Source: an uncultured Verrucomicrobiae bacterium
Lineage (GTDB): Bacteria > Verrucomicrobiota > Verrucomicrobiia > Limisphaerales > Palsa-1400
Direction of reading: 5' to 3'
DNA: 64,000 nt
Assembly (NCBI GenBank): GCA_963764165.1
Contig: CAVXRD010000001.1
Coordinates: 1,536,001-1,600,000 of the forward strand
Under the pieces are notes generated by a model. The model was not told where the DNA came from. It worked only from the letters and a program-made list of their open reading frames with translations, and made no database searches. Of the stretch, positions 3,015 through 38,077 are shown one piece after another (positions within the stretch are counted from its first letter, which is position 1; each line of letters starts with the position of its first letter). The position numbers were made by a program, and so were the translations under genes.

Positions 3015-3524
3015 TTATTCCCTGCCCCGCAAAAAATGCTCCGCAAGCGCCACAGCATCAAAAATGTCCATTCGGCAATCATCGCTCGTCCAAAGTTTGG
3101 GCTTTGGAGGCAAACGAGGGATCAATTCTTCCGGGAAGCGAGCGGCCAGATATTCGGCCAGGGCATGTTTTGTCCCTTGCTCATCCGCCAGAAAATCAAG
3201 GTTCATCTGCTTCCGGGAGCACTGTTTCACCTTGATCTTCCCATCCTTTGCCATAAGGACAATCTCATCAAGCAGTGCCCGTATCCGTTCCGAGCGCCGC
3301 GACCCTTTGGCCCAGGCATCTTCGATTGCGATGGCGTTTGGGTGATAAAGGGCAATCAGGTTTCCAATATTCGAGAGGCAGCGGGCATTCTTGTCCCCAC
3401 CCTTTACCGTTTTGACGCCCCAAGCAACGAGGGTGTTCTCCCCCTCCATCACGGCAAAACCGCAGCCGAAGGCAGATGGCGCAAGTCCCAAAACGCGGAT
3501 ATTTTTTGAAAGGTGATTTTTCAT
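3015..3524 (-). CDS. RuvC-like (RNase H fold) protein with Ala at the first catalytic Asp position
   Basis: RVLGLAPS..GFAV, IAIED, DIFDAVALA pattern of RuvC resolvases; Ala codon GCG confirmed in the DNA. Confidence 0.65.
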   Translation of the reverse strand: MKNHLSKNIRVLGLAPSAFGCGFAVMEGENTLVAWGVKTVKGGDKNARCLSNIGNLIALYHPNAIAIEDAWAKGSRRSERIRALLDEIVLMAKDGKIKVKQCSRKQMNLDFLADEQGTKHALAEYLAARFPEELIPRLPPKPKLWTSDDCRMDIFDAVALAEHFLRGRE

Positions 3525-3904
3525 GGGTTTTGTAATTGATTAAGAGGGCCAGTGGGCAAGATCGAAGCGAGGAATTGGCGCTTTCGGGCCGTTTGGGCTT
3601 TTGTATTGCTGCGTAAAGCCTTTTGTTCCAACAACTTGACTCGCGCCTCTAACTCAATTTGAATCTCTTTCACGAGTCCCGGAAAAAGTTCAGAAATAGG
3701 CCGCTTGTAAATCGCTTCATAGACAAGGGCAGATCGAAGGCTGGGGTCCAGAGTGAACCGTTCATGTTGGCAGACTTTGCCGCCGCCTTGAATTCCCAAG
3801 AGGAAAGCCACTTCCGTTTGGGAAAGTGCGGAGCGTTTGCGATGCGATAAAAGATGATTGGAGAGATATTCCGAGGCCATAAAGTGTGTTTTGGTGAACC
3901 GCAC
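3521..3904 (-). CDS. XRE-family HTH regulator
   Basis: HRKRSALSQTEVAFLLG..HERFTLDPSL; 4-nt overlap with the RuvC-like gene. Confidence 0.8.
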   Translation of the reverse strand: MRFTKTHFMASEYLSNHLLSHRKRSALSQTEVAFLLGIQGGGKVCQHERFTLDPSLRSALVYEAIYKRPISELFPGLVKEIQIELEARVKLLEQKALRSNTKAQTARKRQFLASILPTGPLNQLQNP

Positions 3905-3949
3905 GGGCGAGTCCAGAATGCAACACTAATGGAAAAGAAAGGCACTCAG

Positions 3950-3980
3950 AAGACTGTGGTCTTTGCCGAAAACGGCAAAT
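3950..3980 (+). repeat. Motif copy 1: AAGACT-N6-TTTGCCG-AAAA-CGGCAAA
   Basis: AAGACT at 3950-3955 and a perfect 7-bp palindrome at 3962-3979; recurs at 6192, 7132 and 8191. Confidence 0.85.
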
Positions 3981-4132
3981 TCTACAAAAAACACCGGGCT
4001 TTTTAAGGCTCGGTTAGTGTCAACTATATTATGACATATATATGAATAAATAGCAAATAACCATTCGATATCACCGAAAACGGACAATCCTGCCGTCTAT
4101 CCCCATTCAATGTGCCCGCATACAGTTGAGGA

Positions 4133-4303
4133 ATGAAAATTGAACCAGCCGCACTCCATGAATTAAAACGGATTTGTGCCGAATCCTTCCAACGAACCCT
4201 TTCCGATACAGAGGCACAGGAGATCGGGCAGCGGATCATCCGTTTCCTTATGAATTCCGAAGCGCCCTTTCCTGCCGCTGTCCGCGATGTTGACGCGGAA
4301 TAA
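4133..4303 (+). CDS. Small 56-aa protein preceding the LSR (missing from ORF track)
   Basis: MKIEPAALHELKRICAESFQRTLSDTEAQEIG...; resembles small helical proteins I recall upstream of this type of serine recombinase. Confidence 0.6.
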   Translation: MKIEPAALHELKRICAESFQRTLSDTEAQEIGQRIIRFLMNSEAPFPAAVRDVDAE

Positions 4304-4334
4304 TGGTACGTTACGCTTGAACCATCCAATCCCA

Positions 4335-6200
4335 ATGACCCAATATGTAATCTACAGCCGAAAATCGCAGGAGGACGAAGGCAAACAAATTCAATCCATT
4401 CCGGCCCAGGAGGACGAAATGAAACTGGTCGCATCAAGATTGGATTTGACCGTTATCACGCCCCTGTTGAGCGAAGCCAAATCCGCCAAAGCACCTGGCC
4501 GGCCTGTTTTCAATGACATGATGGAGCGGGTTGATCGGGGCGAAATCCGAGGAATACTTTGCTGGAAGCTTGACCGGCTTGCCCGAAACCCGGTTGACGG
4601 CGGACGGATCATTTGGGCGATCAAACAGCATGGCCTGGTCATTCAGACCCCTCACCAAACATTCTCCCAAGCGGAGGATAACATGATTCTCATGTATATC
4701 GAATTCGGCATGGCCCACAAATATGTCGAAGACTTGAGCAGGAACACAACCAGAGGCTTGGAGAAAAAGGCCAAGCTGGGTTGGTATCCCGGCATCGCGC
4801 CACTCGGGTATTTGAACTCAAAAGTGGAGGAACGGGGCAATAAGACCATATTCCGCGACCCCGCCCGCTTTGATGCCGTTCGCCGAATGTGGGACCTCAT
4901 GCTCACCGGGAACGCCAGTCCCACGAGGATTCAGAAGATTGCGAATGATGAATGGGGCTTTCGCACCCGGCAGACAAAGAAAACAGGTGGAAAGCCGATC
5001 TCCCGGAGCACCATCTACAGAATCTTTGCCGACCCGTTCTACTATGGCCGGTTCGAGTATCCAAGAGGCAGCGGCCTCTACTATCCCGGCCTGCATGAGC
5101 CGATGGTCACGAAGGCGGAATTTGAATGTGTGCAGAAGATTCTTCACCGGGAGATCAATCCAAGACCCCGAACAGAATTCGCTTTGCCGTTCCGGGGGGC
5201 CATCAAATGCGGGGAGTGCGGATCGTGCATAACCGCGCACTTCAAAGAGCAGGTCCGATGCACCAAGTGTCACTTCAAATCGTCGGTGAAGAACCGTGCC
5301 GCGTGTTCCAAGTGCGGTTTGGCTTTGAGTGACATGAAAGCGCCCACCATGCGCCGTTACGGTTACTACCATTGCACCCGGACTTTGAATCCGCTCTGTC
5401 GCCAAAAATGTGTGTCGGCGAGCGCGCTTGAGAAGCAGTTGACAGAGAAATTAAAGCCATTCGGGCTTCCAGCAGAGTTGCGGGACTGGGGTTTCCAATA
5501 TATCGAAAAACTGCAAGACCGGGACCTCGACGGGAAGCGGCAAATCCTTGTGGAAAGGAAAAAGGCGTTCGATCAGTGTGTCATTCGGTTGGAAAATCTG
5601 GTGAAGCTCAAAACGGCAGCGGCAAACGCTGACAACAGCCTTCTTTCCGACGAGGAATACCAGAAGCAGCGTGCCGATTTGCTTGCCCAAAAGAGCACAC
5701 TGGCGACTGATACCGCCGCCTTTGAGACGGAGTTGGAGGGCAAAGTTCGACGCACCAAGGAAGCGCTAAAAGTTCTTGGAAAAATACACGACATGGCTCC
5801 CGATGCCGACGCGCTGAGAAAAAGAGAAGTTCTGACCGCATTAGGATTGAACCACGCTTTGAAGGAAAAGGAGCTAGAGATCAGGCCGGAATTTCCCTTT
5901 TCTGACCTGCCGCGTGGAGACAATCTGGAGCAGCGTGATTTGACTCCGATTGAACCAGATAATATGCAGGGCGGACAAGGCCCAAATGGTGTTTTCCGTT
6001 CTGCTTTTCCCGTTCTTGAGCGGGAACGGGACGATGATCGAACCAAATTGTTGAAGATAGCACTCGACACAATCTGGAAGAAAATCGACCCGTCAAAGCA
6101 CTTTACCAAAAAAATCCCGATTACGGAAGGAGGATCGAGCGCACCTGGCGTCCCCGATAGAGGGCATGATACCAAAGGCACCAATAAGTCCAAGACTTGA
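4335..6200 (+). CDS. Large serine recombinase 1 (resolvase + recombinase + Zn-ribbon/coiled-coil)
   Basis: YSRKSQE catalytic Ser, WKLDRLARN, CGECG, an extra CxxC/CxxC insert, coiled-coil. ATG 4335 preferred over 4287. Confidence 0.93.
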   Translation: MTQYVIYSRKSQEDEGKQIQSIPAQEDEMKLVASRLDLTVITPLLSEAKSAKAPGRPVFNDMMERVDRGEIRGILCWKLDRLARNPVDGGRIIWAIKQHGLVIQTPHQTFSQAEDNMILMYIEFGMAHKYVEDLSRNTTRGLEKKAKLGWYPGIAPLGYLNSKVEERGNKTIFRDPARFDAVRRMWDLMLTGNASPTRIQKIANDEWGFRTRQTKKTGGKPISRSTIYRIFADPFYYGRFEYPRGSGLYYPGLHEPMVTKAEFECVQKILHREINPRPRTEFALPFRGAIKCGECGSCITAHFKEQVRCTKCHFKSSVKNRAACSKCGLALSDMKAPTMRRYGYYHCTRTLNPLCRQKCVSASALEKQLTEKLKPFGLPAELRDWGFQYIEKLQDRDLDGKRQILVERKKAFDQCVIRLENLVKLKTAAANADNSLLSDEEYQKQRADLLAQKSTLATDTAAFETELEGKVRRTKEALKVLGKIHDMAPDADALRKREVLTALGLNHALKEKELEIRPEFPFSDLPRGDNLEQRDLTPIEPDNMQGGQGPNGVFRSAFPVLERERDDDRTKLLKIALDTIWKKIDPSKHFTKKIPITEGGSSAPGVPDRGHDTKGTNKSKT

Positions 6201-6222
6201 CAGTTTGCCGAAAACGCCAAAT
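6192..6222 (+). repeat. Motif copy 2 (AAGACT-N6-TTTGCCGAAAACGCCAAA), overlapping LSR1 stop
   Basis: Read directly; one mismatch in the palindrome. Confidence 0.85.
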
Positions 6223-6528
6223 GGCCATACGTCTTGTCGAGTCTTCTACGAGACTATGCCGTGCAATGTGGCGGATAGGTGACAATACAATCATACGCCA
6301 CAAAATTCAATACCGGCAGGGACTTCTCCGATAGCCAAATCAGCAAATAGCCGCCCAAATAGCATTTGCAAACTGCACAGAATGCGTTACATATCGTTGT
6401 TACAAGGACAGATCACACTAATAGCTACCGTTTTCGAACTTATTATCATATTCGATATAGGAAACTGATTCGTCAGTCACGAAATGACTGAAGAACGGGC
6501 CTTAGATTGTCTGTCGGAAAGCACTATA

Positions 6529-6716
6529 TGTCAGACCACAAGAAAATTGAAATAATCAAGCATGAGCAAGAGGGCGGTATACTGTCTCCAGAGAGACACC
6601 GGGCAACAAGCCAATCCGGCGACCAAGTTCGAGCAAGCGAATTCCAAAAGACCCGTGGCGCAGCCGAACAAGAAGCGATTGAACGGCAAAGTGGGAGTCA
6701 AACTCAAAAAAAATAA
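6529..6716 (+). CDS. Small hydrophilic hypothetical protein
   Basis: 62-aa ORF followed by GC-rich hairpins; no recognisable motif. Confidence 0.4.
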
Positions 6717-6988
6717 CCCACCCCCATACAGATCACACTGAGGGAGGGTGGGAGACAAATGAACTCCGAAGGGGTTCACTTACCTATGTTTTAAGACGGT
6801 GCGAGACTCAAATCATTACACGGAGCGATTTACCCTGATCGCTCCCCTTTTTTTCCTTACCGTGGGGGACTCAGAGGACGTTAGAACCTACGGCTACAAA
6901 GCGAAACGGGCGGCCGCGCTCATATACGCTCATTTCAAAAAGGAATTCGGATTTCCAGAAGATCACTGAAATTGTCGGATTGGTATGG

Positions 6989-7162
6989 GACCAACAACAG
7001 GACACAGCTCGAATGTGGGATAACATTTTGGATCGGTTGGCAACATTGAATAGGCAAGGGTTGTTGCCCGATCTCTCGACACTGGCGGCATTTCGGCATA
7101 GAGAGGATACAACAGAGTTGAATGAATGACGAAGACTCCGGATATTGCCGCAAACGGCAAAT
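6989..7162 (+). repeat. Direct repeat A (start-less coding tail DQQQDT..WD.IL..L...GLLPDL) ending in motif copy 3 (7132-7161)
   Basis: GACCAACAACAGGACACA is identical at 6989 and 8053; downstream similarity is mostly at the amino-acid level. Confidence 0.85.
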
Positions 7163-7207
7163 CCCGCAGCCTATTATCATTCCCCTATTCTTACTACCCT
7201 TATTATC

Positions 7208-7462
7208 ATGCAAAACACACAATTCATTTCAAACCGTCTTCGGGCTTGTCGCAAGGAGACTAACCTCCTGCAAGTAGATGTCGCCAAGTCCCTGGGACTC
7301 GATTGCGCTGATCGCATCTCGCGCTGGGAGAACGGCACTGCCATGCCGAATGTCATCAATCTGTTCAAACTAGCAGCCATCTACAACGTGATGCCCCACG
7401 ACTTATATCCTGAACTTCTTCAGGTCACGAAGGAACAATCGAAATCAACCGAAAATAATTAG
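7208..7462 (+). CDS. XRE-family HTH regulator
   Basis: NRLRACRKETNLLQVDVAKSLG..ISRWENGTAMP; paralog-like to 3521-3904. Confidence 0.88.
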   Translation: MQNTQFISNRLRACRKETNLLQVDVAKSLGLDCADRISRWENGTAMPNVINLFKLAAIYNVMPHDLYPELLQVTKEQSKSTENN

Positions 7463-7556
7463 GCGGCATCGATACTTATAGCTTTGCATTACATTGACAG
7501 ACAACGCCCTTGTGGAGCACAATGATGCGAACGACTGGCAAAAATCATTACGAACT

Positions 7557-8030
7557 ATGGAAGAAACTCAACCTGTAATTATTCCGACTGAGGCCGCCCT
7601 GCGGGCAATGGTCGAGGCGGCTGCGCGTTTGACGATGCGAGACGAAATCGCCATATTAAAAAACGGCAAAGTCGAAAGAACCTTTTCTTCCTATTTTGCG
7701 AATAAAATCGCAGAGACAATTTGCATGGCAAATGTGCGCGCCGATCCATTTTACAACAAACATTTGGGCGCCACAAAGATACTCGACGGAAAGGTCATTG
7801 AGTTGGATATAGCCGTTCACGAGAGAAACAGCGACAAGAACAATTTGGTTGCAATAGAACTTGAAACAACGAATCACCCAAAGAGAGATGATATTTGGAA
7901 ATTGGAGAAGTTGACGCAGCAACTCTATGGCTTCGGGTATAAGCTCGGTTTTTATATTGTGTTCGGCGTAAAAAAAGAAGCTGGGAAAATCAGCATTGCA
8001 GAATGGTTCAAAAATGGCACGATCTTGTGA
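7557..8030 (+). CDS. Putative PD-(D/E)XK-like nuclease
   Basis: ERTFSSYFA, DPFYNK, LDIAVHER..NLVAIELE pattern; E-x-E instead of E-x-K. Start may be 7494. Confidence 0.5.
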   Translation: MEETQPVIIPTEAALRAMVEAAARLTMRDEIAILKNGKVERTFSSYFANKIAETICMANVRADPFYNKHLGATKILDGKVIELDIAVHERNSDKNNLVAIELETTNHPKRDDIWKLEKLTQQLYGFGYKLGFYIVFGVKKEAGKISIAEWFKNGTIL

Positions 8031-8052
8031 TTTGTTACTTCTAACAAGTTGT

Positions 8053-8212
8053 GACCAACAACAGGACACACCTCGAACCTGGGACCGAATACTCAGTAAA
8101 TTAACGGAACTTGCCGAAAAGGGCCTCTTGCCAGATTTGACTACCCTGTTCATAGGTGGGGGACATCATACCAAGAGTGCCAATGAGACCAAGACTGTGG
8201 CCTTTGCCGAAA
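8053..8212 (+). repeat. Direct repeat B ending in truncated motif copy 4 (AAGACTGTGGCCTTTGCCGAAA, 8191-8212)
   Basis: Matches repeat A; 8191-8212 matches 3950-3971 at 21 of 22 positions. Confidence 0.85.
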
Positions 8213-8232
8213 GCAACCAAACGGAGCAATAG

Positions 8233-9006
8233 TCACCTCACGCTATCGACTGGAGGATCGAGTTTCTTTTCACCGGCATCATGCGGTTTTCGGGCACGAG
8301 GGGCGTTTTCCGTGCTTTCAAAAAGCCGTTCAGCATATGCAAAGGCGGGAATTTTCACCCATGCGGGCTTAATCGTGAAAATCCACCAATAAAGAAGCAG
8401 TGCGTTCGCTGCCGTGCAGACCCATGGAGCGATTTTTGGGTCGCCAGAATGAACAAACCAGATGCCCGCACCACCACTCACGACGATACCAAGGAGCGTA
8501 ACCATAACTCCCGTCGAGCGCAAAGCAAACAGATTTCGGCAAAACCCGTATTGGACGTTTTCCTTATGTAACAAAGGATACTTTTTAGTGTCGCGGGTTT
8601 TGCCGATTTGGAGCTTCACTGCCGCGTTATAAATATCATCCGCGCCGGAGGGATTAGAAACTTCTTCCTCTGCCGTAGGAAATGCCTTTCCCAGCAGCTT
8701 GTGAAGACTTTTGTGCCAACGTTCCCGCATAACCGGATTTGCTGGCCCTGAATGGCGGAGGAATTGTGTAGTTGGCGCACCGCCCCAAGATTGCCAAAGA
8801 CCGGGTTCAATTCTTTTTCCGAAATTGCGAGCAAGTATTGCGAGGAAAAATGTGCCGCCAGCCGTTGAAAAAAGCGTCCAGAGAGCCGACTGCCATTTGA
8901 CGCCGGGACCCGTCCATGCGAACACACCAATTGCAGCAGGTAGCAAGGTCAAAAGCGCCGGTTGAACCCGCGCCCGCAAGCTGTAATAGTCAAACAAATT
9001 AGTCAT
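8233..9006 (-). CDS. Multi-pass (about 4 TM) membrane protein, coupled to MBL hydrolase
   Basis: Two hydrophobic pairs flanking a soluble domain (ENVQYGFCRNL); 8-nt overlap with the MBL gene. Confidence 0.75.
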   Translation of the reverse strand: MTNLFDYYSLRARVQPALLTLLPAAIGVFAWTGPGVKWQSALWTLFSTAGGTFFLAILARNFGKRIEPGLWQSWGGAPTTQFLRHSGPANPVMRERWHKSLHKLLGKAFPTAEEEVSNPSGADDIYNAAVKLQIGKTRDTKKYPLLHKENVQYGFCRNLFALRSTGVMVTLLGIVVSGGAGIWFVHSGDPKIAPWVCTAANALLLYWWIFTIKPAWVKIPAFAYAERLFESTENAPRARKPHDAGEKKLDPPVDSVR

Positions 9007-10096
9007 CGTTTTCTACTTGGGTATAAAATTGTATTGGTTCGATTGACCCGTATGTGCTTCTGGCAGGTGCTTGATCGCGCAGCCAAATATTGATCCCGGC
9101 TGTGGCGTGGACGGATGCTCCACGGCGGCGGAGGGCGTTGGTCACCTTTTTGTGGGGATGTTTCGGCGCGCCATCTTTTGCTGCGGAGATATAAGCATAC
9201 CAATCTTTTGCATCCAGTCCTCGGACGCCTCCAAATAGACGATTGAGCACTGAGGGGCCGAGATTCCGACGGCTTCCGTGGTGTGGCACATCGAAGAAAT
9301 ATAGTCCCGCGAGCGAAATCCCGTTTGCGTCTACAAATGCAATCGCCGCCTGTAGCGCGGGAACGCCTGCATCGCCTGTGAACAGGAACTTCTTGTCATC
9401 CACATCAAGGGTGAAAATCACGGATGAATTATTCTCGGAACTTGTCGCGTCTGGAGCAGGCTCTTGGAGCTTTTCCGTGAACCAATTCTCCGAGACCCAA
9501 TTCGCAACCGTGGCTCCCAACGCCCTGAGTGCCTCCCCAAGACGTGCAGAAGTAGTTTGGATTTCAGTTCCTGGCATAAATCTGAATCCCGCGAGCATTT
9601 CTTGGTAAAAATCTTTTGTCGGCCCAATGACGCGTAGTCCAAGCCCGCTTGCACCGGCAAAAGGCTCGATAACGGGGATCCCCTTTTCCTTCGCGAGCTG
9701 TTCAATCTCTCGCACAGTGGAGAGATTCCGTTTGGCATTTTCCCGTATCGAATCGGTCGTCACGCGACCGTCATCCAAGAATTCTTTGACATCGCTTGAA
9801 TGATTCCAAGGCAAGTGCATCGCCAATTGTTTCACTTTCAGCCCCTCCAAGATGTTGCGCATTCCCGATGCGTGATCCGTATCGGCATGCGACAATATTG
9901 CAATGTCCACTGTGTCGGTCCCATAATACGTTTTGACATGCTTCACCAGTGCATCGCCGGATTCCAATGTTCCACCGTCGATTGTGACGACGGTCTGCTC
10001 ATTGCGTTGACCAAAGAGGTTGCCGTAGCGCAGACATACCGCATGTGCGCTTCGCTCACCATCGCCCGCCGCTAAATAATCGATTTCGTATCCCAT
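8999..10096 (-). CDS. Metallo-beta-lactamase-fold hydrolase (ComEC/Rec2-like nuclease domain, no channel domain)
   Basis: IDGG, SHADTDH, ENNSS, FTGDAG, VPHHGS, HP motifs. Confidence 0.88.
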   Translation of the reverse strand: MGYEIDYLAAGDGERSAHAVCLRYGNLFGQRNEQTVVTIDGGTLESGDALVKHVKTYYGTDTVDIAILSHADTDHASGMRNILEGLKVKQLAMHLPWNHSSDVKEFLDDGRVTTDSIRENAKRNLSTVREIEQLAKEKGIPVIEPFAGASGLGLRVIGPTKDFYQEMLAGFRFMPGTEIQTTSARLGEALRALGATVANWVSENWFTEKLQEPAPDATSSENNSSVIFTLDVDDKKFLFTGDAGVPALQAAIAFVDANGISLAGLYFFDVPHHGSRRNLGPSVLNRLFGGVRGLDAKDWYAYISAAKDGAPKHPHKKVTNALRRRGASVHATAGINIWLRDQAPARSTYGSIEPIQFYTQVENDD

Positions 10097-10132: not shown

Positions 10133-12619
10133 ATGCAAAATGCAATAAAAATCGATGAGCGCCTCCGTTTACTTCGTTCAAAGTTGAACCTGAGCCAAGA
10201 ACAATTGGCGTCACGTCTAAATATCTCATTTGCAACGGTTAATCGCTGGGAAAGCGGCAAGGTGAAGCCGCAAAAGGCTCAACTTGACTCACTCGATAAA
10301 CTCATGGGGGAAGCTGGCATTCAGGATGGAGATAAGGGCAATGTTGCGGAGGGTGATGGAGCTTCTGCGCAGCAGCCCCGCCGTCGTCGAGGGGTTGCAA
10401 AAAGCGCCGTGCTCGGAAACCGGGGCATGGAGCAGATGCTTTGGGACGCGGCATGCTCGATACGCGGCGAAAAGGACGCGCCGAAATTCAAAGATTATTT
10501 GCTCCCGCTGCTTTTCATCAAACGCCTGTCGGACGTTTTCGACGACGAAACGCAACGGCTCGCCGATCAGTTTGGCGACCGCGCCACCGCCCTTGAAGTC
10601 CTGGAAGACGATCACAAACTGGTCCGCTTTTACATCCCGCCCGAGGCACGCTGGCCGGTGGTGAGCGGACGCGAGGCGTTCAAATGGCCAAAGGACAAAA
10701 CGCCGAAGGGTCTTGGCGAACAACTCACCACGACCATTCGCGGCATCGTGAAACACAATCCGTCGCTCGCGGGCGTGATTGATATTGTGGATTTCAACGA
10801 AACCCGAAACGGCGAGCGCGAGATTAGCGACTCCGCGTTAAAGGGTATCATCGAAACTTTCTCTGACGCCCGCTACCGGCTTGGCTTGCACGACGTAGAA
10901 CCTGATTTTCTCGGACGCTGTTACGAATACCTTTTACGGAAGTTCGCCGAAGGCCAGGGGCAAAGCGCCGGAGAGTTTTTCACACCCACCGAAGTCGGCT
11001 TTCTAATCGCCGAAATAATGCGGCCACGACCCGGCGAGGAATGTTACGACTACGCTTGCGGCTCGTTTGGTCTGCTTGTCAAATTGCAAATCATCTGTCG
11101 CCGCCTCGATCCCCTTTCAAAAGTCCCGCTTAAGCTTTATGGCCAAGAACGAGAGGCATCTAGTTATGCCATCGCTTGTATGAACAGAATAATTCATGAT
11201 ATGGAGGGCCAAGTGGCGCGCGGTGACTCTATGCGCAATCCCAAATTCAAAGACAGCGATACCCGGCTGAAACAGTTTGATATTGTGGTCGCAAATCCCA
11301 TGTGGAACCAATCGTTTGATGCCGACGTTTTCGAAAACGACCCTTTTGAACGCTTCGAGGAGCAAGGCGGTGTCACCACCACCAAGGGTGATTGGGCTTG
11401 GTTACAACACACGCTCGCGGCGTTGAAAAATGCGGGGCGAGCAGCCGTCGTCATGGATACAGGGGCAGTCACGCGCGGAAGCGGCAGTAAGAACGAGGAC
11501 AAGGAGCGCAACATACGCAAATGGTTTGTGGACCACGACCTGATTGATGGCGTTATACTATTACCGGACAACCTCTTTTATAACATGAATGCGGCAGGGG
11601 TGATAATTATATTGCGTAAGCAAAAGCCAAAAGAACGAAAAGGCCGCATTTTTCTCGTGGATGCAAGCAGCCAGCGCCAGAAAGGCAATCCCAAAAACTT
11701 CATTCCAGAATCAAGCATCAAAACGATTGCAACAGCTTTTCATAAAGGAGAGGCAGTGGATGGATTTCTTTCAGTGATCACAAATCAGGAAGCATCCAAC
11801 AATGACTACAATCTTCATCCTTCACGCTTTTGCTCTACGACTGCAAAGAACACACACCATAGCGCAGATGCACTTAGAAAGGAGTTAGATGCCCTTGAAC
11901 TTGAGGCGACTTCAATTGAAAAAGGTTTAGCCAGAATCTTGAGTAAATTTAACGTTTCGATGGATATCGATGAAGCTCCCTTGCCAGATGATTGGCAGTC
12001 TTCTGTGCTCGAAACATTTTATCGCATCACAAAGAAGCCGAAGGGCCTTGCTCTGGACGGAATCGACACAATTCCGTTTATTCCAATGGAATTGGTTCCT
12101 GCCAAGGGGACTCATAAAACTCCATTTAATCTCAAAAAACGAAAGGATATCACGAGCGGCACATACTTTGAAAAAGGTGACGTTTTGCTCTCGAAAATCA
12201 CGCCTTCCTTTGAAAATGGAAAACAAGGCATAGCCGATGAAATTCCGAGTGCTTTCGGCTACGCGACCACCGAAGTGATACCCATTCACTCACTACCCAA
12301 TGTGAGCAACAAGTATTTTCTGTTCTATTGGCTCTTACAGCAATCGGCGCGCTCTTGGCTTGAGGCTAGAATGGAAGGAAGCACCGGGCGGCAACGTGTT
12401 CAGGAACATTCAGTTAAGGAGATTCCATTCAGTAAACCTCCTTTTGAGGAAGAAAAGAAGATTGCCGCCGTGCTAAGAAAAATTCAGCGCATGATTGAAA
12501 TTAGAGAACGACAGACTTTTCTTCTGCGAGAGCTGTTCAAGGGTTCATTGAATATCCTCATGACTGGTCGCGTGCGGATAAACGATCTCGACATTGATAC
12601 AAAGGATATCGAGTCATGA
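10133..12619 (+). CDS. hsdM: Fusion of XRE HTH, type I HsdM methyltransferase and single-TRD HsdS
   Basis: N-terminal [40 protein letters not shown]-terminal [28 protein letters not shown] (one TRD plus coiled region). Confidence 0.9.
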
Positions 12620-15537
12620 GCACATTACTCGCAAACGAGGCCAGCACGGTTCAGTTTCCGCTCGTAAAGCACGCGGCGGAAATCGGCTGGACTGTCATAT
12701 CAGACGCCGAGGCACTTCGTCGGCGCGGCGGCGAAGCCGGTTTGTTTTTCGACAAAGAACTTGAAGACGCCTTGCTCCGCCTTAATCCCGACATCATCAC
12801 GGCGGAGAACGTGCAGTCTGTCATTCAACGCATGGAGAGCGTGCCGAACACCATTGAGGGCAACCGCGAAATTCTCGAATGGTTGCGCGGCAACAAAACG
12901 GTGTTCGTCGAAAGCGAGAAAAGGCATCGCAACGTTACGCTTTTAGATGTCAAAAACATTGACCGTAATGTTTTTCAAGTCACCTACGAATGGACATTCC
13001 GTGCGTTGAACAAAAAAGGCAATCGTGCGGACGTGATGTTTCTTATCAACGGAGTTCCAGTTGCCATAGTGGAAAATAAAAACCCAAAATTGCCGGATGC
13101 GACCGAACGCGCCATCAAACAACTTCGCCGCTACCAACTGGAAACGCCGGAATTGCTCACCATGTCCCAAGTGTTCAACGTGACGCACTTGATCGAATAC
13201 CTTTACGGCGTCACTTGGAATTATTCGCGCAAGGGCATCTTTGAATGGAAAACCAAGCGCGAAGAAACTTTCCGCAGCGCGGTTCAAGGATTCTTTGACC
13301 GGGGCATCTTTCTGAAAATGCTTGGCGAATGGATTTTATTTTTTCTCAAAGACGATGAATTGCAGAAAACTGTTTTGCGCCAGCACCAGACGCGCGCCGC
13401 TGAAAAAGTTGTGGAGCGCTGTGCCGACCCGAAAAAGAAAACTGGCCTTGTCTGGCATACACAAGGTTCAGGAAAAACTTTTACGCTCATCACGGCGGCA
13501 CGGCTCATTTTGGAAGACAAGGAACGCTTCCCCGGCGCGACGGTGATGCTTGTGGTTGACCGCAACGAATTGGAAGGCCAGTTGTCAGGCTGGGTCGAGC
13601 GACTTGTTGGTGAGGTTCACGGACGCGACATCAAAATTAAATACGCCGACAGCCGCGCAAGGTTGCAGGAATTGTTAGATCAAGATTTTCGCGGCCTTAT
13701 CATTTCGATGATTCACAAGTTTGACGAAATCCGAAAGGATTCATGCAAGCGTTCAGACTTTTTTGTGCTGATAGACGAAGCGCACCGTTCGACTAGCGGT
13801 GATCTTGGCAATTTCCTAATGGGCGCATTACCGAACGCGACGCTGATCGGTTTTACCGGCACGCCGATTGATAGAACGGCCCACGGCAAAGGCACATTTA
13901 AAGTTTTCGGCAAGGAGGACGACAAGGGTTATCTCGACAAGTATTCCATCCGAGAATCCATTGCAGACGGAACGACAGTTATGTTGCGTCACACGTTGGC
14001 GCGAAGTGAAATTCAGCTTCCCGAAGATTTGCTCGAAAAGGAATTCTTGAACATCGTCGAGAGCGAAGGCGTCAGCGACGTGAACGAATTGAACCGCATC
14101 CTTGACCGTGCGGTAAATTTGAAAGCGTTTTTGAAAGCCGACGACCGCGTAGAGAAAGTGGCACAATTCGTCGCAAAACACTTCAAGGAAAACGTCGAGC
14201 CGCTGGGCTACAAAGCATTCCTTGTAGCAGTGGATCGTGAAGCGTGCGCCCTTTACAAAAAGGCACTCGACAAGTATCTACCCCGAGAATACTCGATACC
14301 GATTTATACGAAGAATGCAGCGGACTCCATTGACCGCCCTCTTGTGGCACAAATGCAGTTGGACGAAACCGCCGAGAAGAAAGCCCGCAAAGCGTTTCCG
14401 AAGCCCGACCAATTGCCGAAAATTTTCATCGTCACCGACAAACTTCTCACCGGCTACGACGCGCCCGTTTTGTATTGTATGTATCTCGACAAGCCAATGC
14501 GCGATCACGTCTTACTTCAAGCCGTGGCGCGTGTGAACCGGCCTTACGAGGACGACAAAGGTGTTAAAAAGCCGTGCGGCCTCATCGTTGATTTCATCGG
14601 TATCTTGAAAGAATTGAACAAGGCGCTGGCGTTTGATTCTGACGAAGTGAGGGGTGTAATTGAAGACCTCGACATTTTGCTCGCTCGTTTCAAAGAGTTG
14701 ATGGAAGCCGCTGGCAAATCATACTTGGAAGCCGCTGGCACAAACGGCGGAAGGGACGTGAAGATCGAGAAACTGCTTTACGATATTTTCCTAGACAAGC
14801 AGAAGCGGCAGGAGTTCGTCGAGTTTTTCAAGGAGGTTGAAATGCTTTACGAAATCCTTTCGCCTGATTCCGCGTTGCGTGATTACATAGAAAATTACAA
14901 TAGGCTCGCTGACCTTTACGTCATGCTGAAAAACGCCTATGGCAAGAAAACGACGTTTTACGCAGACATCGCCCACAAAACTGAAATGCTTGTCCGCGAA
15001 AATGCCGCATCTCACGGTCTCGCCAAGATGACCAAGACGGTGGAATTTGACGCAGCGGCATTGCAGGCGTTGAAAGATAAAAAGGGTTCAGACAACGGCA
15101 AGGTAATCAATCTCATAAAAAGCCTCACTAAAAGTGCAACCGACCGAGGCGAGAAAGAGCCATATCTCATTTCGATTGCCGAGCGCGCCGAGTCTGTAAT
15201 GGGTGCGTTGGAAGATCGTCAGGTTTCCACGGCAGACGCGCTTTCGAGAATCGAAGGATTGATGCGGGAAAAACTGGCGGCTGAAAAAGTCCGTAAGGAA
15301 AGTGGGCTTGACCCCGACACGTTTGAGATTTTTTGGTTTTTGCAGCAGCAAGATGTCAAAGACGCTCTCCTTATTGCAAAGGAAATCAATGCGGTATATT
15401 CGCGCTTCCCCAATTCCGCCAGCAATGCGGACGAGCAGCGACAATTGAAAGCCGAGATTTACAAATCATTGCTCCGCGTCGTCAGCGGCAAGCGCATGGT
15501 TGATCTTGCGGAAGAGATTTTACGTCTTAAACAATAA
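12616..15537 (+). CDS. hsdR: Type I restriction endonuclease subunit R
   Basis: [13 protein letters not shown] nuclease, [36 protein letters not shown]. Confidence 0.95.
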
Positions 15538-15884
15538 TGAAATCACGACACCAAAACGCTGTGCCGTTGGATCAACCTTTCAAAACAAAGGTGCATTCAT
15601 GGGCATTGAGAGTTCGTGTGAAGCCGACGCAAGTCCGCATTCAGAAAATGACTCGCAAATGGGCGTCATGTTCGACTCGCGGATGGATCAGCTTTTCATA
15701 CGACCTTTTGCTTGAGCCGCAACCCTTTCAAGATTATGTGGTCGTTCACGAACTGCTTCACTTGAAAGTCCGCAATCATGGCAAGCTTTTCAAAAGTTTG
15801 CTTTCAGCATATCTACCAGGTTGGAAAAAATTTAGCCTTGAATGTCGCGCTACAAGACCAGTAGGTTCAGGAGCGGTGAAATAA
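15537..15884 (+). CDS. Short YgjP/DUF45 (M48-like) zinc metallopeptidase
   Basis: RKWASCS, YVVVHELLH, NHGKLF; usual neighbour of hsdR. Confidence 0.85.
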   Translation: MKSRHQNAVPLDQPFKTKVHSWALRVRVKPTQVRIQKMTRKWASCSTRGWISFSYDLLLEPQPFQDYVVVHELLHLKVRNHGKLFKSLLSAYLPGWKKFSLECRATRPVGSGAVK

Positions 15885-15901
15885 ACTCACCAAACAAAAT
15901 C

Positions 15902-18589
15902 ATGCCAATTACCTTTAATGAAATTGATGTGGTAGATAACGGCGCTCAGTTTTCCAATGCCGATCTGCACGTTCACTCCTTCGGCGCTTCCCACGATGTC
16001 AAAGATTCCGCGATGACTGTGGAAGCCATCATTGATGAAGCCGTAAAAATTGGCATTCAAATTTTGGCTATCACCGACCACAACACAGATGCAAACACGC
16101 AGAAGAGCATTGATTATGCGCAAAAATATACTGGCCAGATTCTCGTGCTGCCCGGTGTTGAAATTACGACCGCACATGGCCATCTTCTTGTTTATTTTTC
16201 CCCGATTAAAGCCGCGAATGTCCGTAATTTATTAGCAAAGATAAATGTTGTCGGCAACCTCGGCGATCAAAACAGTCACACTGCCATGTCCATGGCTGAT
16301 GTGATCAAAGAAGCTGAGCTTTTGGGCGGCATCTGTGTCGCCGCGCACATCGATAGAGTAAAAACTGGCTTTGAAATGCAGATTCAAGGTTATCCCAATT
16401 GGAAGAAAGACATCATGCTGAGTCCTGGGCTTTACGGCTTGGAATTCGATATCCCGACAAATCTTGGTTGGTATTCAGATACGGACGAGCCGACCACAAA
16501 CGGCACGGAACGGAAGCAAATCGCCCGGACCAGGGCAAATGTGCCGCAAATCATGGGGCGTCCCCACTTGGCTCGCATTCAAGGGTCTGACGCACATACG
16601 CTCAAGATTTTCACCACAGGTCGAAGTGGCAAAATTCTTACGCGATTTAAACTCACCGAGCTAAATTACGACGCGTTTAGAACCGCTCTATCTGACCCGG
16701 AAGCTCGCGTCCGGGCCGTGGCAACAATTCCACGCACATTGCCTCGCATTCTAGGAATGAAGATAGCCGGGGGGTTTCTGAATGGAGAAACCTACCATTT
16801 TAGTGATAATTTGAACTGCTTCATCGGCGGCCGTGGAACCGGAAAATCTTCTGCGCTCCAAACGCTTGCGCACGGCCTGGGGCTTAACGACGAAATGAAT
16901 ACGCACGATAACTGCCCTGGGTCCGTAGTTGTATATTGTGAAGACACGAATGGAATCCGTTATCGGTATGAACGAATGCAGGGATCAAAGCCCGTTGTAA
17001 GGGCAAAAAATGACCTAGATATTAACGATGTTCCGATTGATGCTTTTCGAGTTGAATATTATCAGCAAGGTGAGTTGGCGGAAGTTGCAAAAAACCCTCT
17101 TAAAAACCCAGGCTTGCTTCAACAATTTTTGGACAGACACCTATTATTATCTGATCTCCTCGGCAAAGAGGAACAGTTGGTCACAGCCCTTGAACAAAAC
17201 AGTGCGCAGCTTATTCCACTTGAGGTCAGCGCCGGCCAACTCACTGGGAAAAAACAGATTCTCGCAGATATAAACAAGAAATTGTCTATCGCAGAGGCCG
17301 GAAAATTGAAGGACATAGCGGCCGAACAAAGTTGTCTGGCCAATGAAAAGAATTTTGCAATATCACTCGAACAAATCGGAAATGAGTATGCGCGCGGTTT
17401 AACCCTTTCAAATTTTGCCCGCGATTATGGAACAATCGAGGCCACCGTTGCCCCGCTGACAAATTCGCCCGCCTGTAACGCCACACTCCTCAAAATTAAG
17501 AATGCAATCGAAGTGGTGAACACATTCTTAGATGAAAAGGAAAAGGATATTAAGGCAAAATTTAACAGTGCATCAAAAGAGATTACGGCTGCATTGGCCG
17601 AGTTGAAACAGATCCATAGCCAGCTGGAAACACAATTGAACGTCAAAATAAAAGAACTCCAGCAAAAAGGTCTGTCAGGAAGTATTACCGAGCTACAGAA
17701 TTTTCTCACCCAAAAGGGTGCAGTAACGCTCGAAATCAATAAAATCAACACCCAGGCACCACAGTTGAAACAGTTGAGGCAGGATAGACAGCAATATTTG
17801 ACCGATCTCGAAAATCTCCGGGAGGAAATTATGAAACGGAGAAAAGGACAGCTAAATTCGATCAATCAAAATCTCGCCGCGACCATTGAGGATTACACGG
17901 TCTTCGTGCATTACGAGCCGAGTGGAATAATCGACGCGTTCAAGAAGTTTATTCTCGAGAAGATGCAAGGAACGTATTTTCAAGAAGACGCAGCAGAACA
18001 ATTTTGTTCCCATATTACGCCACCAGCACTTGCAAAATTTGTGCTCGATGAGAACTTTACTGAAATTAGTAATGTTACCGGCGTCACCAAAGAATGGGCG
18101 GGACAGATTTGCAAAAAGCTCCGATTTTATCAACAACTTCACGCGTTGGAAGTTATGTGGAAAACGCCATGTCCCATTATTTCTGTGAAAACGAAAGGCG
18201 CGAAGCCGAAAAGTATCCCGGTTAATCAACTTTCGGACGGCCAGAAACACACCATTATGCTGACCATCGCCATGCTGGCAGAATCAAACATTCCATTGGT
18301 GATTGATCAACCGGAAGATGATTTGGATAATGCTTTTATTTTTTCGGCCGTTGTCAAAGCACTCCGTTCGATTAAGGAGCGAAGGCAGGTCATACTCGTT
18401 ACACACAATGCTAACATAGCTGTTTTGGGGGACGCCGAATTACTTTTGCCAATGCGACGAAACGGTGATGGAGGAACCGCCTTCGATCTTGGTTCAATTG
18501 ATAAAACCGAAACAAAAAAGACAGTTTTGAATATTCTTGAAGGTGGAGATTTAGCCTTCCGGCGCAGACGTGAAATTTACGGTTACTAA
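15902..18589 (+). CDS. PHP phosphoesterase + ABC/SMC-like ATPase fusion (Ppl/TrlF-like anti-phage protein)
   Basis: DLHVHS, ITDHN, GVEI, AH, GSDAH (PHP); GGRGTGKS, LSDGQ, IDQPEDDLDN, VTHNAN (ATPase). Confidence 0.88.
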   Translation: MPITFNEIDVVDNGAQFSNADLHVHSFGASHDVKDSAMTVEAIIDEAVKIGIQILAITDHNTDANTQKSIDYAQKYTGQILVLPGVEITTAHGHLLVYFSPIKAANVRNLLAKINVVGNLGDQNSHTAMSMADVIKEAELLGGICVAAHIDRVKTGFEMQIQGYPNWKKDIMLSPGLYGLEFDIPTNLGWYSDTDEPTTNGTERKQIARTRANVPQIMGRPHLARIQGSDAHTLKIFTTGRSGKILTRFKLTELNYDAFRTALSDPEARVRAVATIPRTLPRILGMKIAGGFLNGETYHFSDNLNCFIGGRGTGKSSALQTLAHGLGLNDEMNTHDNCPGSVVVYCEDTNGIRYRYERMQGSKPVVRAKNDLDINDVPIDAFRVEYYQQGELAEVAKNPLKNPGLLQQFLDRHLLLSDLLGKEEQLVTALEQNSAQLIPLEVSAGQLTGKKQILADINKKLSIAEAGKLKDIAAEQSCLANEKNFAISLEQIGNEYARGLTLSNFARDYGTIEATVAPLTNSPACNATLLKIKNAIEVVNTFLDEKEKDIKAKFNSASKEITAALAELKQIHSQLETQLNVKIKELQQKGLSGSITELQNFLTQKGAVTLEINKINTQAPQLKQLRQDRQQYLTDLENLREEIMKRRKGQLNSINQNLAATIEDYTVFVHYEPSGIIDAFKKFILEKMQGTYFQEDAAEQFCSHITPPALAKFVLDENFTEISNVTGVTKEWAGQICKKLRFYQQLHALEVMWKTPCPIISVKTKGAKPKSIPVNQLSDGQKHTIMLTIAMLAESNIPLVIDQPEDDLDNAFIFSAVVKALRSIKERRQVILVTHNANIAVLGDAELLLPMRRNGDGGTAFDLGSIDKTETKKTVLNILEGGDLAFRRRREIYGY

Positions 18590-18872: not shown

Positions 18873-19119
18873 TTTTGGAAAAGGGGTTATCACCCCGACG
18901 ACCGGTCCGTTATCACGCAGCGTTCACGCATGAAGCGTGGAGGACGACGGGTTGACTGCCATCACAAGTTCGTTCGTGATGCCACGACCGACGACCGTCC
19001 GGAGAAAAAGCGCTGCCGCGCCGCAGGCGCGACCGATTTTCCCGTTGAGCACGAATTTGCCGATTTCGCCAAATCCAGCAGTCTTTGATCGAATCCCCGT
19101 TCCGGTAATCTTGACGCAT

Positions 19120-21601: not shown

Positions 21602-21871
21602 GTGGTAACCGACAAATCGCAGCAGGCCGTTTGCTCCCGTGTCGCGCATCTTTTGCGGCAGGAACGAGAGAGGCGCGGCCTATCCATGAATCTGGTGGCC
21701 GAGCGAGCGGGTTTATCCCAGCAAATGGTGAGCTACGTTGAACGCGGAATGCGCAACCCCACCTTGGAAACGCTCTTGCGTATCGCCGCCGCGATGGAGA
21801 TCAACCTCTCGGAGATACTCAATCAAGCAATGATAGAGACTCGGAAAGTTGCCGCAAAGCGCAAAGCCTAA
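21602..21871 (+). CDS. XRE-family HTH regulator
   Basis: RERRGLSMNLVAERAGLSQQMVSYVERGMRNPTL. Confidence 0.9.
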   Translation: MVTDKSQQAVCSRVAHLLRQERERRGLSMNLVAERAGLSQQMVSYVERGMRNPTLETLLRIAAAMEINLSEILNQAMIETRKVAAKRKA

Positions 21872-21909
21872 CGGCTTCCCCGCCTGTCCTCGCCTGATAT
21901 TCTGGACGG

Positions 21910-22821
21910 ATGTCATCCCGACGTCCTCCACGTTTCAAACGCACACCCACGGTTGCCCCGATGGAGCTTACGGAACGAGATCGTGCGATCATCCGGTTGA
22001 TCTATCGGCACCGCTTTTTGCGTTCATCCCACATCGTCTCGCTCATGGGCGGCAGCCGACAGCAGATTTTACGGAGATTGCAATTGATGTATCACCACGG
22101 ATTTCTGGACCGGCCACGCATTCAGATTGAATACTATTATCAGGGCGGCTCCCGGCAGATCGTTTACGGTCTTGGAAAGAAAGGTCGTTCTCTTCTGAAA
22201 CAGGAAGCCAATACGGAATCCCCATCTTTCCAATTTGAGGGGAACATCAGTCTGCCCCACCGAGTCTTCTTTGAGCACGCCGTTCTGGTGTCCGACATTA
22301 TGGTGGCCATTGAACTAGCCTGCCGCAAAGTGCAGGGTGTCCATCTGCTTATGGGAGAGGAATTGCCCCTTGCCGGTGGTGTCCACCGGAAACTCAAATG
22401 GAGGGTCAAAGTGAACAGGCGGGTGTTGCCCTATATCATACCTGACAGGGTGTTTGCGCTCATTTTCAAGGAGTCCCCCGACCAATCTCCCGGCCTCTTT
22501 TTCCTCGAAGCCGACCGGGGAACCATGCCCATTGTCCGCCAAAATCTCTCCCAATCCTCCTTTTACCGGAAGCTCTTGGCATATGAGTCCACATGGACAC
22601 AAGGATTGCACCGCACGCGGTTTGGATACCACCGCTTCCGGGTCCTCACCGTGACCACGAGCGCCGCGCGGGCGGAGTCGCTTGTGGCGGCATGTTCGCA
22701 GTTGAAAAGTGGACATGGCCTGTTTCTCTTTGCCGACCAGGCGGCACTCAAAAGGCACGGCGATATTTTGACGTTTTCGTGGAAAACCGGCAGAGGCGAG
22801 ACAGCCAAGATATTGCCGTAA
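21910..22821 (+). CDS. Replication-relaxation (Replic_Relax) family protein, putative relaxase
   Basis: LTERDRAII..HRFL, EHAVLVSD, IPD, FLEADRGTM, RKLLAY, FRVLTVT. Confidence 0.85.
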   Translation: MSSRRPPRFKRTPTVAPMELTERDRAIIRLIYRHRFLRSSHIVSLMGGSRQQILRRLQLMYHHGFLDRPRIQIEYYYQGGSRQIVYGLGKKGRSLLKQEANTESPSFQFEGNISLPHRVFFEHAVLVSDIMVAIELACRKVQGVHLLMGEELPLAGGVHRKLKWRVKVNRRVLPYIIPDRVFALIFKESPDQSPGLFFLEADRGTMPIVRQNLSQSSFYRKLLAYESTWTQGLHRTRFGYHRFRVLTVTTSAARAESLVAACSQLKSGHGLFLFADQAALKRHGDILTFSWKTGRGETAKILP

Positions 22822-22829
22822 ACGGCAAA
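22812..22829. repeat. Palindrome ATTGCCG-TAAA-CGGCAAA (no AAGACT) overlapping relaxase stop
   Basis: gatattgccg.aaacggcaaa matches 7141-7161 at 20 of 21 positions. Confidence 0.75.
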
Positions 22830-22945
22830 CCACACAGTCTATTAGAGAGTCATCACACGGCATACGATATTCCCCAGAGACGGTTCATTTCGTGAGCCGC
22901 ACTTAGTTCTTCATTAGTTCGTTGACAATTAACCCAAGGAATATC

Positions 22946-36574: not shown

Positions 36575-38077
36575 ATGAAGGAAAATAGTGCCTTGAAAAA
36601 ACGTGTCGGCATATGGATTCGTGTTTCCACCGAAGATCAAGCCAGGGGCGAAAGCCCGCAACACCACGAGCAACGCGCCCGCGAATACGCCAAGTTCAAC
36701 GACTGGACAGTGGTTGAAGTGTATGACTTGGCCGGGGTGTCAGGCAAAACCGTCATGGAAAATGCCGAAGCCAAGCGGATGATGTCCGACCTTAAGCGCG
36801 GCCACATCAACGGCCTGATCTTTTCCAAGCTCGCCCGCCTTGCCCGAAACACAAAGGAGCTTTTGGAATTTGCCGAGTTGTTCCGTCAGCACAGCGTGGA
36901 CATGATCTCCTTGCAGGAGAAAATCGACACATCATCCCCCGCCGGACGCCTTTTCTACACGATGATCGCGGCAATGGCGCAATGGGAGCGAGAGGAGATC
37001 GCCGACCGTGTTAAAGCCTCGATTAAAATCAGGGCAAAACTTGGCAAGAGTTTGGGCGGTGCCGCGCCTTTCGGCTATCAGTGGGAGAACAACAAATTGG
37101 CCGTGCATCCCGTCGAATCTCCCGTCCGCAAGCTCATGTATGAGCTTTTTGCCAAAAACAAGCGCATGAAGGGCGTTGCGCGGCTTCTTAATGAATCGGG
37201 CTACCGCACGAGGAACGGCAGCAAATTCAGCGATACGACAGTTTTGAGGCTGCTTCAAGACACCACGGCAAAGGGGTTGTATCGCTCAAATCACACCTAC
37301 CGTGACGGCTCCGGCAAACTCCTTCCCAAACCAGAAGACGAATGGGTTTACAGCCCCGTCACTGCGATTGTGTCCGAATCCTTGTGGAAAGAGTGCAACG
37401 ATGCTTTGGGAGCGCGAAAGGCGCAGAAGCCGCTTGGACGGAAGCCTGTGCATTTGTTCGCCGGATTGCTGCATTGCGGTTGCGGCCAAAAGATGTATGT
37501 CTTTTCCCGCTCCCCCAAATACGTCTGCCCGGAGTGCAGGAACAAAATAACGGTCGAAGACATGGAGGGGGTTTTTCACGACGAATTACATGATTTCTTC
37601 GTGTCCCAGGACAAAATTAAAGGGCATCTGGCGAACGCAAACCAAAACCTTGCCGACAAAAAAGTCAGGCTTGAGGCGCATACCCGGCAGATTGAAAAAG
37701 TTCGCACCGAAATGCGCAAAACATACCAACTCTATCAAGAAGACCAGATTACCCCGGAGGGCTTTGGGAAAGTGTATCGCCCGCTTGAAGATCAGGAACG
37801 CGCCCTGACAGCCGAACTTCCAAAGCTCCAAGCCGAAGTTGACGCAATCGAAATGCACCAGATTTCCGCCGAAGAAGTGCTCGCGGAGGCGACTGGACTA
37901 CACCGGAAGTGGCCTCATTTCGGCCAAGAGGAAAAGCGGAGAATCATCGAAAGTATCGTCGAGAAGGTCACTCTTTCGGGAGACACAATTGATATAACAT
38001 GGTCATACTTAACCTCTTCTGAAGAACTCACAAAAAGGCAACGCAACGTGTCGGGTTCATCGCGGCCACCAGCATGA
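36575..38077 (+). CDS. Large serine recombinase 2 (integrase of the comM island)
   Basis: [29 protein letters not shown], coiled-coil; 3' end runs into comM sequence. Confidence 0.95.

Follow-up and report, generated by a model that had tools for sequence, protein, structure and literature searches.

A probable promoter box and stacked recombinase tails behind a large serine recombinase in a Verrucomicrobiae mobile element

What separates the small gene packets that lie behind a large serine recombinase (LSR), and what is the repeated motif that accompanies them? These questions are raised by the region around the gene for LSR1 in a mobile element of an uncultured Verrucomicrobiae bacterium, which we analyzed within a 64,000-nucleotide stretch of its genome (the window; contig CAVXRD010000001.1, positions 1,536,001 to 1,600,000). 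An initial annotation, made from the sequence alone, had read the motif (AAGACT, six nucleotides and a palindrome) as the remnant of recombination sites or element ends that split the region into cassettes, accreted by LSR1 in an integron-like array. The feature is real, but the motif was misread and the seams between the units were misplaced. It appears probable to us that the motif is the upstream box of element promoters, and that the units behind LSR1 are decayed or non-autonomous elements stacked in tandem by tRNA-targeting LSRs that carry the attachment site attP in their own 3' end.

A pattern scan of the window found AAGACT-N6-WTTGCCG at positions 3950, 6192, 7132 and 8191, all on the plus strand and with copy 4 truncated, exactly as first described. 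The chance expectation for the window is 0.01, none of 100 shuffles gave four copies, and a search of the 7.0-Mb genome on both strands gave no exact match beyond these four, of which three are the full motif with its right arm. The description was nevertheless incomplete: further boxes stand at 19057, 21849 and 22813 in front of core element genes, the homology around the copies reaches far upstream to whole orphan LSR tails (6986 and 8050), and a third tail at 6859 has no copy of its own. The reported homology between the end of LSR1 and the sequence before copy 4 (GHDTK versus GHHTK) holds, with 73% identity over 52 nt before and in copies 2 and 4 (6162-6213 versus 8161-8212). We rejected its explanation as a purely peptide-level similarity; it is at least partly a DNA-level one, because it spans the reverse complement of the antisense -10 boxes TATCAT and TATGAT.

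Read on the opposite strand, the motif becomes TTGCCG-N4-CGGCAA-N8-GTCT, most likely the upstream box of element-controlled promoters rather than a recombination site. We based the analysis of its geometry on 67 distinct box instances from all loci collected, the window's own genome included, related sequences among them not being independent. A TAnnnT hexamer begins 20-22 nt after GTCT in 52 of these instances (other 3-nt windows average 1.6 and reach at most 6), and ATG codons peak at 33-36 nt after GTCT, which is the geometry of leaderless promoters. A weight matrix trained on 50 box instances from other genomes gave 25 matches above 17 bits in the window's own genome. Among the top 12, seven fall in the window's element (7160-, 22813+, 3978-, 19057+, 7145+, 6220- and 8219-) and five in a sister element on contig C4, with the box at 21849+ ranking 17th. 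Copies 1, 2 and 4 are directed leftward, copy 3 in both directions (Table 1). In relatives, the box precedes the genes for XRE_left, XRE2, the VirD4-like protein, the relaxase and the primase as well as the operon of a small open reading frame (ORF) and the LSR, where the window holds only a degenerate box (4071-4126) and relatives have clear ones; it also follows most tails, pointing back across them.

The box is thus element-wide and not specific to the two XRE genes. The alternative of XRE operators, mentioned in the initial annotation, came closer in proposing a protein-binding operator, but its restriction to these two genes was not borne out. In the C4 element every promoter box has a different outer arm, suggesting recognition by a putative element-encoded protein, and we infer that XRE_left and XRE2 are the obvious candidate binders. 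A fixed-distance motif upstream of mobility-gene promoters, as found here, resembles the boxes of AcaCD/SetCD in IncC plasmids and SXT integrative and conjugative elements (ICEs), where one motif lies at a fixed distance upstream of the transcription starts of mobility genes and is used by satellite islands too (PMC4207636). Both systems share the fixed distance, the mobility genes and divergent promoters within one region, as far as that source covers them (PMC4207636). They differ in sequence and, as far as seen, in the activator family (the candidates here being XRE proteins); the palindrome centre here lies near -54, and box binding is predicted. We noted no AcaCD-like genes in the window's element. 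By analogy with AcaCD, the fixed spacing upstream of -35 suggests that the predicted binder may be an activator. Predicted antisense promoters at 6166-6220, 7104-7160 and 8165-8219 cross each recombinase tail and attachment (att) junction, with possible integrase regulation; the corresponding antisense tail RNAs showed no conserved ORF and no consistent structure (fold z -2.2, 0.1 and -0.5).

The units begin to resemble one another at the tail starts, which precede motif copies 2-4 by about 140-180 nt. On this sequence evidence, the true seams are the 3' end of LSR1 (6015) and three orphan tails (6859, 6986 and 8050), and the orphan tails are likely scars left by small gene packets that inserted repeatedly. 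In this family, LSR genes terminate in a tail of 35-60 aa whose first ~30 nt resemble a reverse-complemented tRNA 3' end. Using three hidden Markov models (HMMs) of the tail, we identified 67 distinct tails in the loci collected; the homology between orphans and LSRs mostly starts within a few bases of the tail's first codon.

The same point is where relatives are joined to tRNA genes. In L049, a metagenome contig with an LSR 78% identical to LSR1, an LSR 3' remnant runs into a reverse-complemented tRNA-Thr exactly at the expected tail start. We scored the 120 best homologues on residues 1-520 only and assigned their C-termini by HMM tally: 104 carry the family tail, four, judged by eye, read into tRNA-like sequence at the tail start (P0024, P0029, P0100 and P0135), and 12 are truncated, fused or frameshifted. 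Among 55 tRNAs of the window's own genome, T[CT]GAA[CT] stands at offset 18 of the antisense sequence (start TGG) in 45/45 showing the motif; among 65 tails, T[CA]GAAC stands at offset 23 in 44/44 showing it, although the alignment anchor sets part of this latter offset. When the two sets are aligned at their starts, TCGAAC lies 4-5 nt further out in tails than in tRNAs. The zinc ribbon domain (ZD) motifs of attP and attB are shifted by 5 bp in LSR att sites (PMC3783163), and the shift found here is close to what this analogy would predict. Compared over 26 nt, the tails at 6015, 6986 and 8050 reach 19, 18 and 19 matches to their best tRNA, against maxima of 18, 17 and 17 in 60 shuffles; the best match of tail 6015 is a tRNA-Gly 3' end (19/26). 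Because a tail begins much like a tRNA 3' end and close homologues join a tRNA at that point, a putative attP likely lies inside the LSR gene at the tail start. No conserved distal motif was visible by eye in the P arms. The tail itself is probably a working part of the enzyme, as suggested by a confidently predicted helix (residues 567-583 of LSR1, after a low-confidence linker) and by 2.2-3.4 times more differences at third than at second codon positions, orphans included.

Next, we compared the arrangement across relatives. LSR1 matched 27 of the 101 genomes searched (own included), and its family comprises at least 2,784 proteins at E <= 1e-50 among 7,998 scored. At least one orphan tail follows the LSR in 9/12 loci picked by full-length LSR search, none being present in the DNA fetched for G048, G082 and G068; adding the window and the loci picked by tail search, the count rises to 14/17. 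Throughout the mapped arrays, tails are co-oriented with the LSR. We compared 49 cargo proteins with Pfam (47 of the 82 candidate ORFs and two from the window) and 25 with PADLOC. Cargo varies from locus to locus and includes Gabija, OLD, PDC-S06, PDC-S15, PDC-S54, HicAB, NYN and FRG, alongside many proteins without a match. These arrays support the earlier proposal that small units with variable cargo accrete in tandem in association with a serine recombinase; fixed gene content between copies, which had been named as a refutation, does not apply because cargo differs between loci. At four loci, a LexA-type DNA-binding domain is fused to a small-ORF-like gene, reversed just after a tail (L031:1389-1796, L030:19419-19769, L038:16300-16734 and L063:979-1347).

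Whether LSR1 itself built the stack in the window is a separate matter. The first orphan and the resident LSR are of one clade in 13 of 14 arrays. The exception is the window, where an A2 recombinase is followed by orphans of two other clades (A4, A3, A3). A2 tails are found in all 26 tail-bearing proteins with at least 55% identity to LSR1; of the 78 more distant proteins, 77 have A4 tails and the remaining one is an A2 outlier at 53% identity. Body and tail clades therefore agree, with no swap in the 104 tailed homologues. Unit insertion at the site of LSR1 would leave a foreign tail, which was never seen, so LSR1 probably did not build the window's stack alone and several related recombinases probably contributed, to judge from these clade assignments. 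An integron-like array run by LSR1 is hence doubtful for the window, which contains no orphan of the LSR1 tail clade.

Under the favoured explanation, integration at a tRNA would split the LSR gene into P/tRNA and X/tail junctions. A later element would enter the P/tRNA junction, giving its LSR a new tail and adding its own cargo, which would result in the order LSR P/tail, cargo, X/tail, cargo and so on up to the tRNA. The stack would then have left the tRNA with its element and would now reside in the cargo region of a VirD4/relaxase/primase element that LSR2 put into comM, several related recombinases having contributed units. An element regulator, probably XRE_left or XRE2, would bind TTGCCG-N4-CGGCAA-N8-GTCT at about -61 to -34 and activate the mostly leaderless promoters of integrase, relaxase, primase and coupling genes. 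The same regulator would drive an antisense promoter across each tail, which would account for the box behind every tail. The tRNA-docked state that accretion predicts is seen in L049, in the order LSR with tail, cargo, P remnant fused to tRNA, and a further tail. The cargo in this locus is a PsbP-like protein, and about 25 nt beyond its tRNA-Thr(CGT) follows a tail whose start resembles a tRNA-Gly 3' end (L049:2233-3156 and 3373-3490), as if two neighbouring tRNAs had each received an element.

Several observations weigh against this explanation. Neither the stack in the window nor those at the other Verrucomicrobiota genome loci examined are closed by a tRNA, so that an array abutting its target gene was found only in L049 and co-excision must be assumed elsewhere. 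The tRNA likeness of tail 6859 is at chance level. A TTG-N10-CAA palindrome lies 0-4 nt before the junction in 11/33 non-attached tails versus 0/30 attached ones; this box-like palindrome belongs to many cassette ends, and the association is unexplained by the accretion model. The share of intact tails (104/120) is above the expectation for an integrase that splits its own gene, and it fits an integron-like platform equally well. The original idea of palindromes at cassette borders survives in these related palindromes, which abut junctions and are not among the four listed motif copies. Terminator-like hairpins precede 7/26 orphans and 0/30 attached tails. For both counts, one supposed remnant turned out to be an orphan and another an intact gene cut by the locus edge, and rows with little upstream DNA were dropped.

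These points have to be weighed together with the competing explanations. We regard it as unlikely, though the most serious of the alternatives, that the stack is an active integron-like platform, in which the resident LSR inserts circular X/tail-cargo cassettes at its own intact site within the element, receiving a fresh C-terminal helix each time and requiring no tRNA. Besides the intact homologues, the match in clade between resident and first orphan, the predicted helix and the third-position excess would all suit such a platform. The first 30 nt of the orphan are often near-identical to those of the resident (G007, G030, G076 and G099), units of G007 and G076 share leaders at 84-86% identity, and the X arm before tail 8050 recurs in G145, where the same 17 nt stand before an orphan tail; this arm had no match in viral contigs, in which no LSR1 relative was found either, nor in 400 other genomes of the phylum. 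However, the same observations are expected from tRNA accretion, no empty-site alleles were found, and recombination of P/P' with X/P' is not an attP x attB pairing. The window is, moreover, exceptional in following an A2 enzyme with A4, A3 and A3 orphans, given that the tail-bearing near-clade proteins carry A2 without exception. An extended version of this idea, about which we are similarly sceptical, combines it with the box: cassettes with palindrome/tail half-sites would enter the recombinase's own gene and swap its C-terminal helix, while one regulator would control the integrase, the transfer genes and the antisense promoter over the att site and bind beside the junctions. If true, this platform would be an integron analogue without attC or IntI that trades anti-phage genes in Verrucomicrobiota.

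Less credible still is that the orphans are debris of local duplication and homologous recombination between related elements, without any site-specific step. A few tails do carry longer LSR remnants upstream, and those in the window are too diverged to be recent; yet the starts of most orphans fall within a few nt of one codon, the point at which homologues are joined to tRNA, the window orphans are not copies of the LSR1 tail, and all tails are co-oriented. Least plausible of all, and in our view very improbable, is the original proposal that the AAGACT-N6-palindrome copies are recombination sites or element ends delimiting cassettes. A copy does follow 3/4 tails at a fixed distance of 142-180 nt, and the related palindromes just described abut junctions. 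On the other hand, the spacing to -10 and ATG is fixed, and copies precede integrase, relaxase, primase and VirD4-like genes in the window's element, its C4 sister and relatives, the latter three gene types standing where no cassette border exists. Unit homology switches at the tail starts and not at the motif, and tail 6859 does without a copy. The favoured explanation, that is, promoter boxes within a stack of tRNA-targeting elements, would probably make the locus a variant of an established route by which mobile elements gather defence genes.

Integrons combine the IntI tyrosine integrase with attC repeats and promoterless cassettes that are read from one Pc promoter. Like them, the stack has an integrase gene with small, variable units rich in defence genes arrayed behind it in one orientation. 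It is nevertheless not an integron: its recombinases are serine enzymes of several clades and not IntI, it has no attC-type repeat, its units carry their own promoters or boxes instead of relying on Pc, and the cargo mostly points against the integrase. Staphylococcal cassette chromosome (SCC) elements, which are moved by CcrAB or CcrC, form composite islands at one site; LSR1 and LSR2 match the CcrA/B/C models, as well as XisF, only below threshold and far below the curated cut-offs, and the target differs.

The closest published case is that of the Dehalococcoides ssrA islands. There, the 3' end of DsiB overlaps attL/attP, so that the C-terminus varies with the adjoining island, and islands lacking an integration module are interpreted as cis-mobilizable elements acquired through accretion (PMC3146451). 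As far as described there, the two systems share an LSR with the att site (a putative one here) in its own 3' end, tandem islands at one structural-RNA gene and integrase-less units (PMC3146451). Compared with these islands, the targets here are apparently tRNA 3' ends, the units measure 0.1-5 kb, orphan tails of three clades are mixed, and the stack has no tRNA near it, being enclosed in a second element integrated by LSR2; the sections of the report that were covered describe no shared promoter box (PMC3146451). Co-oriented tandem att junctions with integrase-less units between them, as observed here, are the mark of accretion by cis-mobilizable elements, integrative and mobilizable elements and ICEs. 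A three-step model of this process is given in a review (PMC5704250). There, for the ICESt1/ICESt3 type, a new element likewise enters the att junction of a decayed one, producing chimeric att sites and composite co-excision and transfer, but the worked example concerns tyrosine integrases, whereas the putative att site here is serine recombinase coding sequence (PMC5704250). A literature search, with most subscription papers outside its coverage, found neither this element family nor arrays of serine-recombinase cassettes with coding tails described in any paper.

Beyond correcting the identity of the repeat from recombination site to probable promoter box, these results provide a testable map of a widespread LSR family with a putative att site in its own gene and stacks holding anti-phage and toxin-antitoxin genes. 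They also offer a predicted regulon box for a VirD4/relaxase/primase element family with two serine recombinases. LSRs that target tRNA ends and have readable att sites may serve as integration tools, and if cassettes should enter the intact site without a tRNA, the family would represent a gene-capture system parallel to integrons.

Table 1. Features of the LSR1 region and its element in the window (promoter elements are predicted; ranks are those of the weight-matrix matches in the genome)
Feature	Position	Strand	Remarks
RuvC-like ORF	3015..3524	-	left-end gene conserved in element family; weak NCBIfam RuvC match, E 0.005; same position in relatives
XRE_left, XRE-like regulator, candidate box binder	3521..3904	-	28% similar to XRE2; conserved in relatives; no Pfam match
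Box copy 1	3923..3978	-	palindrome-N8-GTCT; -10 TAGTGT (3923-3928); points to XRE_left; rank 3
Degenerate weak box	4071..4126	+	-10 TACAGT 6 nt before 56-aa ORF; matrix score only 10.7 bits
56-aa ORF	4133..4303	+	conserved upstream of LSRs in the family; 14 homologues among the loci fetched
LSR1, 621 aa, open frame	4335..6200	+	YSRKS catalytic motif; PF00239 and PF07508
LSR1 3' tail, clade A2	6015..6200	+	start is the putative attP crossover (P/P')
Box copy 2	6166..6220	-	-10 TATCAT (6166-6171), antisense over LSR1 tail; rank 6
62-aa cargo ORF, unit 1	6528..6716	+	homologue between tails in L051, 50% over 38 aa
Terminator-like hairpin and T run	6822..6858	+	directly before orphan tail 1; fold z -7.7
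Orphan LSR tail, clade A4	6859..6969	+	E 8e-14 to C-terminus of L010 LSR; 78-83% nt identity to tails in other genomes; missed at first
Orphan LSR tail, clade A3, 47 codons	6986..7129	+	aligns with C-termini of intact LSRs L023 and L024
Box copy 3, two-armed	7104..7200	both	-10 TACCCT (7195-7200) 7 nt before XRE2 ATG; -10 TATCCT (7104-7109) antisense over tail; ranks 1 and 5
XRE2 helix-turn-helix gene, likely leaderless	7208..7462	+	PF01381
Cargo ORF, 157 aa	7557..8030	+	PD-(D/E)XK-like only as a lead; named Atlas neighbours score 0.76-0.77
TTG-N10-CAA palindrome	8032..8047	.	2 nt before orphan tail 3
Orphan LSR tail, clade A3, 60-codon frame	8050..8232	+	C-terminal alignment to intact LSRs of other genomes
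Box copy 4, degenerate palindrome	8165..8219	-	-10 TATGAT (8165-8170), antisense over tail; rank 12
Two-gene cargo after last tail	8233..10096	-	metallo-beta-lactamase-fold gene matches PADLOC PDC-M48B, E 2e-86
Box before operon leading to VirD4-like ATPase	19057..19112	+	rank 4
Weaker box before Replic_Relax relaxase	21849..21904	+	rank 17
Replic_Relax relaxase	21910-22821		PF13814
Box before CHC2-Toprim primase	22813..22868	+	rank 2
CHC2-Toprim primase	22922-23974		
LSR2, second serine recombinase	36575..38077	+	reads into 5' half of split comM-like gene; right island end

The ORFs named in the initial annotation (56 aa at 4133, LSR1, 62 aa at 6528 and the XRE gene at 7208, an HTH_3 protein) are all present. 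Large serine recombinases have a resolvase catalytic domain, a recombinase domain and a zinc ribbon with coiled coil. LSR1 belongs to them by its PF00239 and PF07508 matches; PF13408 is present in its homologues, and its predicted structure matches serine integrases at E 1e-18. The gene first described as nuclease-like exists as the 157-aa ORF at 7557-8030, but its label is a lead only, and the ORF has no match in Pfam, NCBIfam or PADLOC. The 56-aa protein is a possible LSR cofactor. Its nearest Atlas clusters (scores <0.8, leads only) come mostly from bacteria of the candidate phyla radiation, a hint that these and Verrucomicrobiota share element families.

The element has the order RuvC-like and XRE genes (both on the minus strand), 56-aa ORF, LSR1, variable region, VirD4-like ATPase, Replic_Relax relaxase, CHC2-Toprim primase, second VirD4-like ATPase and LSR2. 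The other comM-like half lies ~21 kb upstream of the window and LSR2 adjoins the first, so the island spans ~59 kb; the best reading is that the stack is carried inside this island, inserted in comM by LSR2. The C4 sister has the same gene order and ends at a tRNA-Ser. Counting this one, two more members of the element family were seen in the same genome, on C4 at 739-780 kb (L001-L003) and on C2 at 871-877 kb (L004, L005). Contig C1 carries two similar units upstream of the window, at distances of ~21.2 kb and 4.8 kb (L104; L006:15170-15680). Both start with an inverted copy of the LSR2 end sequence followed by an XRE-like ORF (70% identity over 341 nt), and each unit's ORF holds another att-like inverted repeat ~310 nt in. 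These units suggest tandem accretion on a second level, with LSR2 acting at comM.

A type I restriction-modification cluster occupies 10133-18589 in the cargo region; it has an XRE-HsdM-HsdS fusion, together with a YgjP-like peptidase and a PHP-ATPase that matches Ppl in PADLOC. Positions 1-2622 of the window and the sequence upstream form a low-GC cluster inside the comM island, with a GHMP-kinase-like ORF, two NUDIX genes and kinase-like ORFs. Finally, 41271-44986 encodes two tandem paralogous secreted proteins with near-identical C-terminal halves.

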